From an uncultured Bacteroidota bacterium (GTDB lineage Bacteria > Bacteroidota > Rhodothermia > Balneolales > HLUCCA01): a stretch of 64,000 nucleotides of DNA. Positions 38,727 to 43,094 of this stretch are shown piece after piece (positions within the stretch are counted from its first letter, which is position 1; every line of letters begins with the position of its first letter). The notes below the pieces were generated by a model. That model saw only the letters and a list, made by a program, of their open reading frames with translations. It had not been told where the DNA came from and searched no databases. A program made the position numbers and the translations under genes. The DNA lies in contig CAMTWZ010000007.1 of NCBI GenBank assembly GCA_947085565.1, positions 18,260 through 82,259 of the forward strand. The letters are read 5' to 3'.

Positions 38727-40984
38727 TTGACGAAGAAAGATTTCTGAACGATCCCGCTTACCGACACGAAATCATGTCGAAACGCAAATCCGCGCCTAGC
38801 GCGCCACCCAAGAAAAACGACCCCTTCTGGCCACTCATGAAAAAAGGCGGATTGATTCTTTTCGGACTTCTGTTGTTGTTCTTCATCTATCTGCTGTTGG
38901 GATTGCCGAGTTTCGAGGAATTGGAGAATCCGCGAACCGACAACGCCTCGTTGGTGATCGCGCGTGACGGAGTGACGCTGGACCGGTTCTTCACCGAAAA
39001 CCGCACCATGGTCAAATTCGATGAGATTTCGCCGGATGTGATCAACGCGTTGGTTTCCACCGAAGACCATCGGTTCTACGACCATTGGGGGATCGATCTG
39101 ATCCGGACGCTCGCCGTTCCCTTCCATATCATGATGGGAAACATGCAGGGAGGATCCACCATCAGTCAGCAGTTGGCGCGGAACCTGTACCGGAAAATCG
39201 GAAAAGAAGTCTCCATCATCCGGAAGCTTCGGGAAATGCTCACCGCCATCCAGTTGGAAAGGAGTTACACCAAGCAGGAGATCATCGAAATGTACCTGAA
39301 CACGGTGGAGTTCAGCAACTCGGCGTTCGGGATCGAATCGGCGGCGAGAACGCACTACAACAAGCCCGCATCCAAACTCAACGTGAACGAAGCGGCGACG
39401 ATGATCGGATCGCTGAACGCTATTTCGGCGTTCAATCCGCGTACCCGGGTGGAAGCCTCCACCCGCCGACGCAACATCGTTCTGTCGCGCATGCACACCC
39501 AGGGCCACCTCACCCAAGAAGAATACGAGGCCGAGATCGCCAAGCCGATCACCTTGAATTACCAACCACCGAGCACCGCAAGTCGGAAAGTGCGCTATTT
39601 CGGTGAGTTTGTGCGGGGCAAGGTTCAACGCTGGGTCGAAGCGAACGGATATGACCTTTTTCGCGACGGACTCAAAATCTATACCACCGTCGATTCACGG
39701 ATGCAGCGGGTTGCCGAAGCCGCAGTTCAATCGCAGTTGGATACCTTGCAGCGTTCTTTTCAGAGGGAATGGACCACCCGGGGCGGCGCATATATGGACA
39801 GATTGTGGCGCCAGTATCCCGGATTCCTCGACAGCTTCATCAAAGAATCGGAAGAGTACAAATCTGCTGTGGCGGCGGGTTCCAGTCGCGAATTCGTCTT
39901 GGATTCGCTGAAGCGGGTCCCCACATTTGTGGATGCCGTGAAACGCAACCGCACGCGCCTGGAAGCCAGTTTCCTAGCGATCGATCCAAGCAACGGACAT
40001 ATCCTGGCCTATGTGGGCGGATCCAATTACAGCCGTTATCAGTTCGACCAGGTGTCGATGTCTCGCCGCCAAGCGGGTTCCACCATCAAGCCGTTCGTGT
40101 ACACCGTGGCCATCGACAACGGTTACAAACCCGAGTACATGATCTCCAGATACCCGATCAGCTTCGTGGACCGTGGGGGCAAGGTCTGGGCACCGCGCGA
40201 CGCTTCGGCCAGCTCCGGACCCGAGATGATCTCCTTGCGCGAAGCCTTGGCGCGAAGCAACAACAACGTGACCGTGCGCCTTCTACCGATTCTGGCCGGA
40301 ACCCCCGGAACCAAGCGCTTGGAAGATCTCCAGCCCGCGGCGCGAAAGATCGCCGGCATGGCCAAGAATATGGGGATCCATTCTCCCATGCAAGTGGTTC
40401 CGGCACTGGCTCTCGGAACGGCCGAAGTGAGTTTGATGGAGCTGACCAGCGCCTATGCCACCTTTGCCAACCAGGGCGTTCACATCGAACCGATTGCCGT
40501 CACCCGCATCGAAGACCGGAACGGAAACTTGCTGGTCGAATTCTACCCCGAATCGCGTGAGGAAGTGATCTCACCGGAAACGGCGTACACCATGATCGAC
40601 ATGATGCGTGGCGCAATCCGTGGCGGCAGCTGGGGTTGGGGCACCGGTGCGAGATTGCGCGGAATGGGAGTCTATCAGGATGTGGCCGGCAAGACCGGTA
40701 CCACGAACAACTCGGCCGACAACTGGTTCATGGCCGTGATGCCCCACATTGCGATGGGCGCATGGGTAGGTGGCGAAGATCGCAGAATCCGTTTCCCGAG
40801 CGACACCTACATCGGTCAAGGCGCGAGAGCCGCTCTGCCTATTGTCGGTAAATTCATCATGGGATGCATCAACACTGAAGACTGTCCTTGGAGTTATCAA
40901 GGCTTCGAGCCACCTGTAGGGTATTCCCTCGATGCGGAAGAAGCCGAAACAGTGTCTCCGCGGCGCGGGCGTACGGGCTGGTAG
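38723..40984 (+). CDS. mrcA: Class A penicillin-binding protein 1A (glycosyltransferase GT51 + transpeptidase)
   Basis: 753 aa with an N-terminal TM. GT51 motifs are STEDHRFYDHWG and GGSTISQQ. Transpeptidase motifs are SxxK (GSTIKP), SNN and KTGTT. Confidence 0.9.
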   Translation: MIDEERFLNDPAYRHEIMSKRKSAPSAPPKKNDPFWPLMKKGGLILFGLLLLFFIYLLLGLPSFEELENPRTDNASLVIARDGVTLDRFFTENRTMVKFDEISPDVINALVSTEDHRFYDHWGIDLIRTLAVPFHIMMGNMQGGSTISQQLARNLYRKIGKEVSIIRKLREMLTAIQLERSYTKQEIIEMYLNTVEFSNSAFGIESAARTHYNKPASKLNVNEAATMIGSLNAISAFNPRTRVEASTRRRNIVLSRMHTQGHLTQEEYEAEIAKPITLNYQPPSTASRKVRYFGEFVRGKVQRWVEANGYDLFRDGLKIYTTVDSRMQRVAEAAVQSQLDTLQRSFQREWTTRGGAYMDRLWRQYPGFLDSFIKESEEYKSAVAAGSSREFVLDSLKRVPTFVDAVKRNRTRLEASFLAIDPSNGHILAYVGGSNYSRYQFDQVSMSRRQAGSTIKPFVYTVAIDNGYKPEYMISRYPISFVDRGGKVWAPRDASASSGPEMISLREALARSNNNVTVRLLPILAGTPGTKRLEDLQPAARKIAGMAKNMGIHSPMQVVPALALGTAEVSLMELTSAYATFANQGVHIEPIAVTRIEDRNGNLLVEFYPESREEVISPETAYTMIDMMRGAIRGGSWGWGTGARLRGMGVYQDVAGKTGTTNNSADNWFMAVMPHIAMGAWVGGEDRRIRFPSDTYIGQGARAALPIVGKFIMGCINTEDCPWSYQGFEPPVGYSLDAEEAETVSPRRGRTGW

Positions 40985-40990
40985 GATTTA

Positions 40991-41018
40991 GATGCTTGAT
41001 GCTGGATGCTGGGTGCTG
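40991..41018. repeat. Heptanucleotide tandem repeat (gatgctg)x4, end copies variant
   Basis: Units are gatgctt (40991-40997), gatgctg (40998-41004), gatgctg (41005-41011) and ggtgctg (41012-41018). The array starts 7 nt after the mrcA stop, at the left border of the AT-rich islet. Confidence 0.85.
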
Positions 41019-41306
41019 GGAAATTAATTGAAAAATAACCCAGTAGATCCGTCCAGAATAATTCATTGCTAGAATTGTACGCTTTCCGGCCATAGACCGA
41101 GCCGTCGGGGCGGCGCAAGGACGATATTTTCAAGTCACATAGTCCTATCTGTTTCAATTACTTTACCAATGAGTTCAGCGAACATTATTCGCTTGTATCG
41201 CGCTTTACAATTCTCAGAAGCGTCAGTTGCCATGGCCCGACCATTTTAATCACCGACCCGCCTTTTTTACCCTTTTGGGCAAGACACACTTTTTGATAGA
41301 ACTATC

Positions 41307-41606
41307 TCACTTTGGAATCAGGTTCCTGAGCCATATATACAGGCCATAACAGGCCAATGGAATATTGGTCTTCACTCCAGCGATAAAGGCAATGTCATCG
41401 GGAATATCATACCAGTAAACCAGTTGGTAGTTGGTCAAGAGCAAGGTCGCAAATAACACCCCAGAGGTAATGCCTAATGCCCGAGTCATCCAAACCCCTG
41501 CTCGGTGACCTAAAACGTGCCGAATCAGTAGAACTATCAGGATGATCGGCCAGCCAATCAAACAAAACTGATTCACGAGGACATGGAATGTGTAATAATA
41601 ACCCAT
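41307..41606 (-). CDS. Small integral-membrane protein; candidate immunity protein for the upstream RHS-tip toxin
   Basis: 99 aa with about 3 predicted TM helices (LIGWPIILIVLLI, ALGITSGVLFATLLL, IPLACYGLYIWL). It starts 9 nt after the toxin stop, on the same strand, and shares the AT-rich composition. The function is inferred from position only. Confidence 0.45.
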   Translation of the reverse strand: MGYYYTFHVLVNQFCLIGWPIILIVLLIRHVLGHRAGVWMTRALGITSGVLFATLLLTNYQLVYWYDIPDDIAFIAGVKTNIPLACYGLYIWLRNLIPK

Positions 41607-41615
41607 ATGTGCTAA

Positions 41616-42593
41616 TTATTTGCGAAATAGCCCCAAATTCTCAGATCGCGAACCTATCCTTGAGTGATATCCAGGATGCGAATTGCCACCATAGGAGCCA
41701 TAAAAACGGTTAATATGCATGGCATTCGAACCACCAACCGGATGTCCATGTCCCACCAACTCATGCATCAGAACGATTCCATTTGGAACGTTCTGTCTAT
41801 TTCCATCCGCTGAAATCATGACCCTGCCCCCGCCAGATCTCGATATCATAGCTCCTTGCCCATCATATGCCGTGACTTTATCCATTGATGTACCCGGAAA
41901 TAGTTTCGTGCTACCAGATACATAATCTAGGTCGAAAGCTATTTCGTTTGAATTAATCACATCGTACAGAGCAGATACGATTGGATTCGCACTAAAATCA
42001 AACGTACTTCCGGTAGTGGATAACCTGAAGCCGGATACGGTTTCGACATCCCCCCAAGTCCACGGCTTGTACCATACCGCCGCCGATACTTCCCATGAGG
42101 TCGCTTCAACAGAAATCCCGGTTTTACCCTGATGCAACGCATTTAGGTCGTTTGCCGCCCTTTGGCATTCAGATTCATCAGCGCAACGCACCTCTCTCCC
42201 ATCCGGATCGACATAAATCATTGGACTGTTCATCGAATACACATACGGACTCCACGTCGCGAAGTCTTCCGCCAACGGGTCCACTCCGAAGAAGCGTCCG
42301 GTTCCGGGCGAGTACATCCGAGCGCCGGAGTAGTACAGACCTAAACCGCTTTCACCATCTCGCCAGTAGCCGGTGAATCCTTGACGGACGGGCGTGCCGG
42401 TGGATGAGCGGCCCGGCATGTCCACGCCCCTTCGCCCGATTTCATCGGACTCAGGGCAGGCTCCTGGATAATAATCATTCGCTTCGAGCAAGGAGCCGCT
42501 GTTGGAGGTCCGCACCCGCACCGAACCCAGATGATTCGTCACTTCGGGTCGGGGTAAAATCTTGGCGGGATAAGCATTGATTCGCATCATCAT
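41616..42593 (-). CDS. Orphan RHS-repeat-associated core tip fused to a C-terminal polymorphic-toxin domain
   Basis: 325 aa. Residues 1-132 are the end of an RHS/YD core (NHLGSVRV…, GYWRDGESGLGLYYSGARMYSPGTGRFFGVDPLAEDFATWSPYVYSMNSPMIYVDPDG). Residues 133-325 form an unrelated AT-rich domain containing LMHELVGHGH. No YD-repeat shell or N-terminal trafficking domain lies upstream; atpC does. Confidence 0.8.
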   Translation of the reverse strand: MMMRINAYPAKILPRPEVTNHLGSVRVRTSNSGSLLEANDYYPGACPESDEIGRRGVDMPGRSSTGTPVRQGFTGYWRDGESGLGLYYSGARMYSPGTGRFFGVDPLAEDFATWSPYVYSMNSPMIYVDPDGREVRCADESECQRAANDLNALHQGKTGISVEATSWEVSAAVWYKPWTWGDVETVSGFRLSTTGSTFDFSANPIVSALYDVINSNEIAFDLDYVSGSTKLFPGTSMDKVTAYDGQGAMISRSGGGRVMISADGNRQNVPNGIVLMHELVGHGHPVGGSNAMHINRFYGSYGGNSHPGYHSRIGSRSENLGLFRK

Positions 42594-42603
42594 GCCCCAC
42601 CTT

Positions 42604-42672
42604 AGGGAGAAGTTGTATAAGAGTCAAGGTTAAGTTTCCGTTACGGACTCACTTAACCTCTCTTACCCTCCC
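42604..42672. other. Extended imperfect hairpin between atpC and the RHS fragment
   Basis: Three stem segments: gggag (42605-42609) with ctccc (42668-42672), aagag (42619-42623) with ctctt (42660-42664), and aggttaagt (42627-42635) with acttaacct (42651-42659). An A7 run follows on the plus strand, so on the minus strand the T-run precedes the hairpin. This is not a canonical terminator for either strand. Confidence 0.6.
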
Positions 42673-42686
42673 GGTAAAAAAATCTT

Positions 42687-43094
42687 CTACCGCGCTCCGG
42701 CCACCTTGAGCCGGTTCATCGCGCGGCTGAGCGCCGCTTCGGCGCGGGCTTGGTCCAAACCGGAAGTACGGTTCAACAACCGTTCCTTGGCACGTGAACG
42801 TGCCGCTTCTGCGCGGGCCACATCGATCTGATCAGGAGCTTCCGCCGTCTCGGCCAGTACCACCACTTCGTTCGAACGGACTTCCACAAAACCGCCGCTG
42901 ACTGCGAAAAACCTGAGGGTGCCGTCGGTATCGGTCACGCGGACTTCACCCGCTTCCAAGGCCGACATCAACGCCGCATGGTTCGTCAGGATTTCGAATG
43001 ACCCTTCGGTTCCCGGAACCCGGATGCCCGTGACAGAGCCACGGAACACCGGTCCGTTGGGAGTCAATACCTGAGCTTGGAATGGAGCCGCCAT
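42687..43094 (-). CDS. atpC: F0F1 ATP synthase subunit epsilon
   Basis: 135 aa. The N-terminal beta-sandwich plus C-terminal helical hairpin pattern, and the position directly downstream of atpD, support the call. Confidence 0.9.
   Translation of the reverse strand: MAAPFQAQVLTPNGPVFRGSVTGIRVPGTEGSFEILTNHAALMSALEAGEVRVTDTDGTLRFFAVSGGFVEVRSNEVVVLAETAEAPDQIDVARAEAARSRAKERLLNRTSGLDQARAEAALSRAMNRLKVAGAR

Follow-up and report, generated by a model that had tools for sequence, protein, structure and literature searches.

Between the convergent housekeeping genes atpC and mrcA of an uncultured Balneolales bacterium (GenBank contig CAMTWZ010000007.1), we found an insert of 1.7 kb that we read, with a probability of about 60%, as a reduced rhs island: one period of an rhs tip array, carrying a relic orphan tip-immunity module that would keep an immunity gene and a silent toxin reserve. 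The window is the whole stretch of 64,000 nt that was analysed; coordinates are window positions, and the island is read on the (-) strand. Its larger gene, an open reading frame (ORF) of 325 residues, joins the end of an RHS core to a rare C-terminal domain, and a gene for a membrane protein of 99 residues follows. We call these the toxin and the immunity gene as predicted roles suggested by their architecture.

The insert is defined by its empty counterparts. Two metagenomic relatives have atpC and mrcA abutting, with stop codons 0 nt apart (L021, 3425-3430; AtpC 84% identical to that of the window) and 2 nt apart (L022, 4329-4336; AtpC 65% identical), and window positions 40985-42686 are therefore inserted DNA. 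In the Balneolales metagenome-assembled genome (MAG) JTS-RE107 (L004), the same junction holds about 12.7 kb. This island contains a long rhs gene in the form of two overlapping ORFs of 1396 and 507 residues, the former with DUF6443 and RHS_repeat matches above their cutoffs and the latter with a TIGR03696 match, followed by three further copies of the core end with different tips, which are orphans; a second atpD'-atpC copy and a gene for 174 residues are also present. The islands of the window and of JTS-RE107 have in common the 69 nt that follow atpC and about 32 nt beside the mrcA stop codon; they are therefore homologous at both ends, the window's being the small one. Judged from this sequence comparison, the insert looks like a reduced form of an L004-like island and not an odd isolated insertion, and the orphan state of its module is explained by the long rhs gene and the three orphan tips found at the same site in JTS-RE107.

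The original prediction, made from the letters of this DNA, had described an orphan RHS tip and immunity cassette between mrcA and atpDC and had suggested comparing the junction in relatives; the core match, the domain context and the empty sites support that description, and the comparison gave the empty junctions of L021 and L022 and the long rhs island of L004. Balneolales MAGs are the nearest named relatives of the window genome. The exact proteins also occur in Logan assemblies (four runs for the 325-residue protein) and in one NCBI record with a 160-kb contig. The same-species Logan contigs are 100% identical to the window over the shared stretches, and therefore give no strain-level polymorphism.

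Anatomy of the inserted island

The island and its parts are as follows.

40985-42686 (-): whole inserted island, 1,702 nt between the mrcA stop codon (40982-40984, +) and the atpC stop codon (42687-42689, -)
42618-42686 (-): left-end element, 69 nt with two hairpins; the homology to L004 runs to 42618
42541-42617 (-): 77-nt segment with the start ATGATGATG (42585-42593) and AGGTG 6 nt upstream of it; encodes the first 17 residues of the 325-residue ORF
41616-42593 (-): 325-residue ORF starting MMMRINAYP; 17 unrelated residues, about 115 residues of RHS core end and a toxin domain of about 193 residues
42198-42540 (-): core piece b, the final stretch of an rhs core, T-N-H-L-G-S through P-x-x-x-x-D-P-D-G
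42524-42540 (-): GACGAATCATCTGGGTT, left direct repeat of 17 bp, with which rhs-derived DNA begins in the junction alignment
42433-42465 (-): in-frame insertion of 33 nt inside piece b, where the conserved YYPFG(L) is replaced by YYPGACPESDEIGRRGV in alignments to the L004 core ends and to protein homologues
41619-42197 (-): toxin domain, residues 133-325, with invariant H277, E278, H282 and H284 in HELVGHGH
41307-41606 (-): gene for the hydrophobic 99-residue membrane protein, putative immunity, 9 nt downstream of the 325-residue ORF
41121-41306 (-): AT-rich spacer, 186 nt, 41% G+C
41037-41120 (-): core piece a, 84 nt or 28 codons encoding LRRPDGSVYGRKAYNSSNELFWTDLLG; start of the next orphan module, ending after the T-D-x-L-G codons
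41037-41053 (-): GACGGATCTACTGGGTT, right direct repeat of 17 bp, with which rhs-derived DNA ends in the junction alignment
40985-41016 (-): right-end element, about 32 nt adjoining the mrcA stop codon and common to L004, with four GATGCTK heptamers in a run on the + strand

In intact rhs cores, the counterparts of core pieces b (42540-42198) and a (41120-41037) are neighbouring segments that overlap. Piece b has 74-77% nucleotide identity to the four core ends of L004 and 76-83% to the core of L105. By blastn and alignment, piece a is 82-85% identical to the 84 nt immediately 5' of piece b in the four L004 copies, and 88% identical to its counterpart in L105, in which a runs directly into b; it is also visible in a spurious ORF of 86 residues and gave a tblastn E value of 6e-10. 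In the window, piece a stands downstream of the immunity gene. The order of core piece b, toxin, immunity gene, spacer and core piece a is therefore that of one period of a tip array, and the apparently non-coding tail contains the start of a second module. About 290 nt of AT-rich non-coding DNA had been described here (41019-41306) in the original prediction; the AT-rich spacer at 41121-41306 agrees with this, but the tract is not uniform, as the 84-nt rhs core fragment at 41037-41120 has 55% G+C.

The rhs-derived block amounts to one array period plus 17 bp. The two 17-bp repeats at its ends are identical at 14 of 17 bases, and both encode the conserved T-(D/N)-x-L-G motif. The 77-nt segment before piece b, the 186-nt spacer and the 20 nt behind piece a gave no match among the loci compared. 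The G+C content is 0.592 in core piece b, 0.475 in the toxin domain, 0.453 in the immunity gene and 0.409 in the spacer, with 0.548 for the whole window, and the G+C content at third codon positions (GC3) is 0.66 in the core piece, 0.64-0.67 in atpD/atpC and 0.43 in the toxin domain. The drop is limited to the tip, the immunity gene and the spacer. The lower G+C content first noticed in the toxin and immunity part is thus borne out by the values computed per segment; the counts of 21 and 34 G+C given for two 60-nt lines were exact, and the ORF coordinates and the 9-nt gap were likewise reproduced exactly.

The left-end element forms a conserved hairpin structure between atpC and the 325-residue ORF. 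It folds at -24.5 kcal/mol (z = -3.1), a stability reached by 0 of 200 shuffled sequences, and its inner stem, UCCG/CGGA, reads UUCG/CGAA in the first L004 copy, a compensatory change (CG to TA). The element may be the terminator of atpDC. A consensus scan recognized no terminator-like site in the region and, upstream of the ORF, nothing like a sigma-70 promoter; promoters of the kinds used in this lineage lie outside the scan. No Rfam family was found in the region and no tRNA in the window.

Some further details of the site were observed. The stop-to-stop spacing of the convergent atpC and mrcA genes in L021 and L022 leaves no space for terminators. The GATGCTK heptamers of the right-end element occur at the same place in L004, with different copies. 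The spacer holds an inverted repeat, AGCGAA-TAATG-TTCGCT (41180-41200, -), about 110 nt past the immunity gene. The long rhs gene of L004 (2500-2600) starts with an ATG and a homopolymer of ten G, and an upstream ATG one frame over encodes the signal-peptide-like MRTSKIFSLLLLLAINGGG; a change of 1 nt in this run would fuse the frames, and the run reflects either phase variation or an assembly error.

The truncated rhs product, its putative toxin domain and the putative immunity gene

The RHS core end in the 325-residue ORF, proposed in the original prediction, is real: residues 67-132 match TIGR03696 (Rhs_assc_core) with E = 2.1e-15 and 57 bits, above the cutoff of 32.5, and residues from about 18 to 135 align with the C-terminal ends of the solved RHS/Tc proteins SGS4, Tse5, YenC2 and TccC3. 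As in complete RHS effectors, the core domain ends in the PxxxxDPxG motif, here SPMIYVDPDG. A YD-repeat beta-shell was not found; the ORF has no RHS_repeat match, and tblastn of the 64 kb, with a complete core end and the body of a long rhs gene as queries, detected no other rhs-like sequence. The large ORFs of the window are housekeeping or unrelated genes, in agreement with the earlier statement that no full-length rhs gene lies in it. An N-terminal delivery region (PAAR, VgrG-binding, DUF6443 or signal peptide) was also not found in the 17 residues before the core, which have neither a hydrophobic segment nor a domain match. In Rhs proteins, the toxin is enclosed in the shell, and export depends on N-terminal regions. 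As shell, delivery region and signal peptide are absent, we infer that the 325-residue product would be unable to work as an Rhs effector, in encapsulation or in export.

The features of an orphan module are largely present. The core is 5'-truncated and homologous to a full-length rhs gene of the same clade (L004), and a C-terminal domain of different composition follows, with a small gene 9 nt on. A main rhs gene upstream is found only in L004; in the window, atpC lies 93 nt 5' of the ATG. The ORF does have its own ATG, as had been pointed out in the original prediction, but this codon is placed in 77 nt of DNA that does not match rhs. An in-frame stop codon (42624-42626) lies upstream of the start. 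We tried the start (ATG CGA ATC ...) as a homologue of the long-rhs start of L004, which would imply an internal in-frame deletion, and rejected it, since 162 of 500 shuffled sequences aligned as well. AGGTG lies 6 nt upstream of the ATG triple. Shine-Dalgarno (SD)-like 5-mers precede 4 of the 42 non-overlapping ORFs of at least 200 residues in the window (background 2.8%; a crude count from longest-ORF starts), which fits a lineage that rarely uses SD-led initiation. The AGGTG therefore says little about translation of the ORF.

An exhaustive HMMER search found relatives of the toxin domain in 45 cluster representatives among 1.84 billion. The ORF and 26 family members had no Pfam match, and no match was obtained in NCBIfam or, with a profile of 26 sequences, among the sequences of the PDB; the best Pfam peptidase score, that of one family member to Peptidase_M91, was not significant (E = 0.056). 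An AlphaFold2 model of the domain was confident (predicted local distance difference test score 92.4, predicted template modelling score 0.88), and Foldseek gave no match to it in the PDB, with a best E value of 0.24. The invariant His-Glu-x-x-Gly-His resembles, as a motif only, the metal-binding and catalytic motif of zincins and of peptidase family M49 (dipeptidyl peptidase III). Zincins have HExxH, and M49 combines HExxGH with a second motif, EExx(A/K)E, and the two-lobe fold of dipeptidyl peptidase III. We rejected a classical HExxH reading of the motif, as the alignment gives HExxGHGH (HExxxH plus HxH); with this spacing, and with no Pfam peptidase match and no Foldseek match in the PDB, the domain was not assigned to the zincins. 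As regards M49, only the hexapeptide pattern fits, the domain being about 190 residues long and having no likeness in sequence or fold to PDB chains. Cys137 and Cys143 are both present in 12 and both absent in 14 of 26 sequences, with no sequence holding a single one; this co-variation suggests a disulfide, which would point to an extracytoplasmic site of action. From these sequence features, the toxin domain is probably a metal-dependent hydrolase acting in the cell envelope.

In other taxa, too, the domain is found behind RHS core ends, and some of the proteins that carry it have RHS repeats. One class of about 410-460 residues (P0002, P0021, P0004, P0006, P0007; loci L102-L104) combines a signal peptide or lipoprotein-like peptide with a PKD domain, the last 115 or so core residues (from YYxxDHLGS) and a toxin domain, and its genes stand in arrays with small downstream genes. 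The shorter P0024, P0026 and P0029 have a signal peptide, about 35 core-end residues and the toxin domain. The RHS core-end segment thus seems to work as a portable module without a shell. Viral contigs and plasmids yielded no copy of the toxin domain, the plasmid matches being to the generic RHS core end only. Other rhs fragments were seen in passing. Another Balneolales MAG (L007, 4860-5102) has a solitary rhs core-end fragment from MSMRLGYYYPFGLDMPGRS with its own ATG, which begins at most about 60 nt from where a glycosyltransferase gene, unrelated and in divergent orientation, ends; the fragment is cut by the end of the contig. In L106 (1086-2084), a gene for an IS30-like transposase (HTH_38 and rve) overlaps the 3' end of a related rhs tip ORF.

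The 99-residue protein has only two relatives among 5.8 billion proteins. In another metagenome (L018), a homologue with 88% identity stands directly behind a toxin copy with 91% identity, and the two pairs are 91.5% identical in DNA over 914 nt with no gaps, the homology ending at the stop codon of the immunity gene. A different gene with YD-repeat-like sequence (YSDGRGNIF...) follows the pair at 988-1191 of L018, and the pair is therefore in a different rhs context there. Between the window and L018, the ratio of nonsynonymous to synonymous substitution rates (dN/dS, Nei-Gojobori) was 0.11 for the toxin and 0.22 for the immunity gene at a synonymous divergence of about 0.27, and both genes are thus under purifying selection. 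Toxin homologues at L005, L104 and L101 (an uncalled ORF) are followed by unrelated small proteins with three to four hydrophobic segments, and those at L102 and L015 by N-terminally anchored proteins of 181-190 residues. A constant partner with variable sequence is the usual signature of a toxin and its immunity protein, as established for polymorphic toxins (PMC3150448, PMC4436062), and the small membrane partners of varying sequence behind the toxin homologues conform to it.

The window copy also bears signs of wear. The 33-nt insertion takes the place of the core YYPFG, the near-invariant Trp315 is replaced by Ser, and Tajima-type relative rate comparisons with most outgroups show an excess of private replacements in the window copy over L018 (5:0, 4:0 and 3:0 are among the counts, which are small). 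The catalytic-looking residues and both reading frames are intact.

Origin and possible role of the module

According to the reading that we favour, reduction of a larger rhs island at the atpC-mrcA junction would have left the core end, the toxin, the immunity gene, the spacer and the stub of the next core. The immunity gene may protect the cell against relatives that deploy the same toxin, and selection on this gene would be easily explained because of such protection. The toxin part may be kept silent in reserve; homologous recombination with a full-length rhs gene whose core is of the same clade could arm it again. Salmonella provides established examples of orphan modules and of their activation through recombination (Koskiniemi et al., 2014; PMC3967940), and the Enterobacteriaceae of displaced tips (Jackson et al., 2009; PMC2935791).

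Four observations weigh against this reading. L021, in which the site is empty, is no more distant from the window than L004 (identity to the window, L021 vs. L004: AtpC 84% vs. 73%, MrcA 91% vs. 88%, AtpD 96.8% vs. 97.6%), which makes simple inheritance awkward; either the island was cleanly lost in the L021 lineage, or it was transferred between lineages by recombination in the flanking core genes. Movement by flanking recombination fits the 803-bp direct duplication of the atpD 3' end and atpC in L004 (1639-2441 and 13673-14469; 93.9% identity), which brackets an rhs island of about 11 kb and looks like a Campbell-type integration of a circle carrying atpD'-atpC; the right limit of this duplication is the loop of the hairpin element after atpC. 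For a toxin with no route of delivery, a dN/dS of 0.11 would require that the truncation was recent, that selection acted mostly on the L018 side, or that the orphan product itself has some activity. With its ATG and AGGTG, translation of the ORF is possible. Finally, both boundaries of the rhs DNA fall in the same 17-bp core motif, which is unexpected from two independent deletions; the chance of this is about 2% (2 x 17 / 1500, a rough and post hoc figure). As to the low dN/dS, the truncation may be recent relative to the split from L018, or selection may be continuing. By analogy with Salmonella, selection on the toxin could come from occasional re-arming (PMC3967940) or from an intracellular activity like that of a toxin-antitoxin (TA) module (PMC7043789).

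The boundaries in the core motif lead to another origin for the block, which would be compatible with the functional part of the favoured reading: a circle of one array period, excised via the core repeats, could have integrated outside any rhs gene at a short T-D-x-L-G-like sequence, leaving the 17-bp repeats. Circles of this kind were proposed by Jackson et al. as intermediates in tip exchange (PMC2935791). The rhs-derived block measures exactly one period plus 17 bp, from the first base of one repeat to the last base of the other, its core pieces are circularly permuted relative to intact cores, in which a directly precedes b, and neither the 77 nt nor the 20 nt beside it resemble rhs DNA. 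However, neither a circle nor a recombinase nor a pre-insertion site was found, the two repeats have 3 mismatches in 17 positions, and the toxin domain was not found on viral contigs or plasmids. Both island ends are common to the window and L004, which is simpler as a common island that was later reduced, and two deletions near a conserved motif could also account for the boundaries. We therefore hold a circular origin to be unlikely, albeit worth keeping in view. The stronger claim, that the block is a fossil of a circular rhs tip intermediate integrated outside rhs through 17-bp core-motif microhomology and that its HExxGHGH domain has a fold and an activity undescribed for polymorphic toxins, is more doubtful still.

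If the ORF is expressed, by read-through from atpDC or from a promoter of its own, its product might instead act in the producer and be restrained by the 99-residue protein, as in a stand-alone TA-like module. Such a role would suit the two intact ORFs 9 nt apart, the ATG with AGGTG 6 nt upstream and the dN/dS of 0.11 and 0.22, and in Salmonella the main and orphan rhs-CT/rhsI, driven by internal promoters, act as type II TA modules (PMC7043789). The structured hairpin between atpC and the ORF, the rarity of SD-like motifs (4 of 42 genes), the lack of a sigma-70-like promoter in the consensus scan and the first 17 residues, which come from DNA with no match among the loci compared, speak against it, and the co-varying Cys pair and the membrane-embedded partner point to a target in the envelope and not in the cytoplasm; we regard this role as improbable. 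The wear of the window copy could also be taken for decay, in which case the module would be a functionless pseudogene remnant heading for deletion. The destroyed YYPFG motif, the Trp315 to Ser replacement with the excess of lineage-specific replacements, the reduction of the next module to 84 nt and the lack of a delivery apparatus in the window favour this. In contrast, both frames are intact over 975 and 297 nt, the pair aligns without gaps to L018 over 914 nt with dN/dS well below 1, the invariant H-E-H-H is kept, and an immunity gene would be useful even with a dead toxin, so that we judge wholesale decay slightly less probable again than a TA-like role. The protein could also be a complete small secreted toxin, like the homologues with a signal peptide or lipoprotein signal before the core end, and short family members of this kind do exist (P0024, P0026 and P0029 with about 35 core residues, P0002 and P0021 with PKD and about 115). 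The window protein, however, starts MMMRINAYPAKILPRPEV, with no hydrophobic signal segment, and its core piece belongs to the local Balneolales rhs clade (74-77% nucleotide identity), unlike the short proteins, which makes this very improbable.

Relation to known orphan modules and significance

Orphan rhs tips are already known, and that of the window adds an example in an under-studied phylum, with a rare uncharacterised domain and in an unusually clean, repeat-bounded form. It agrees with the displaced tips and orphan rhs-CT/rhsI modules of the Enterobacteriaceae (Jackson et al., 2009, PMC2935791; Poole et al., 2011, PMC3150448; Koskiniemi et al., 2014, PMC3967940) in its 5'-truncated core with host-like G+C content, homologous to a full-length rhs gene of the same clade, in its low-G+C variable C-terminal domain after PxxxxDPxG, in the small gene downstream and in the further core fragment behind. 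Unlike these orphans, the window module stands alone between atpC and mrcA, with a long rhs gene at the site only in a relative; it is found in the Balneolales, with rhs genes of the DUF6443 type, and its fragment has an ATG and lies in a block bounded by 17-bp core-motif repeats. The rhs-CT/rhsI TA modules of Salmonella (2020; PMC7043789) are likewise a tip and immunity gene without the delivery part, and both could be self-expressed. In contrast to them, the partner in the window is an integral membrane protein and not a soluble antitoxin, and the sequence features point to an envelope target.

The content of the block, namely the 3' part of a core, tip, immunity gene, spacer and the 5' part of the next core, is that of the circle predicted by the circular-intermediate model (PMC2935791). 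In that model, the circle enters an rhs core by homologous recombination, whereas the flanks in the window are non-rhs DNA. A relic of one period bounded by repeats has the shape predicted in 2009 for circular tip intermediates. To our knowledge, such intermediates have never been observed. If the block were indeed the fossil of a circle, tip-immunity cassettes would be able to move and to settle with no need of a resident rhs gene.

The toxin domain is rare and confidently modelled, with no relative in sequence or fold among described families, and is a candidate for a new antibacterial activity with a membrane-embedded immunity partner. Furthermore, the stop-to-stop junction of atpC and mrcA, with its empty, full-island and minimal-relic states, offers a natural series for the gain and erosion of rhs islands outside the Proteobacteria.

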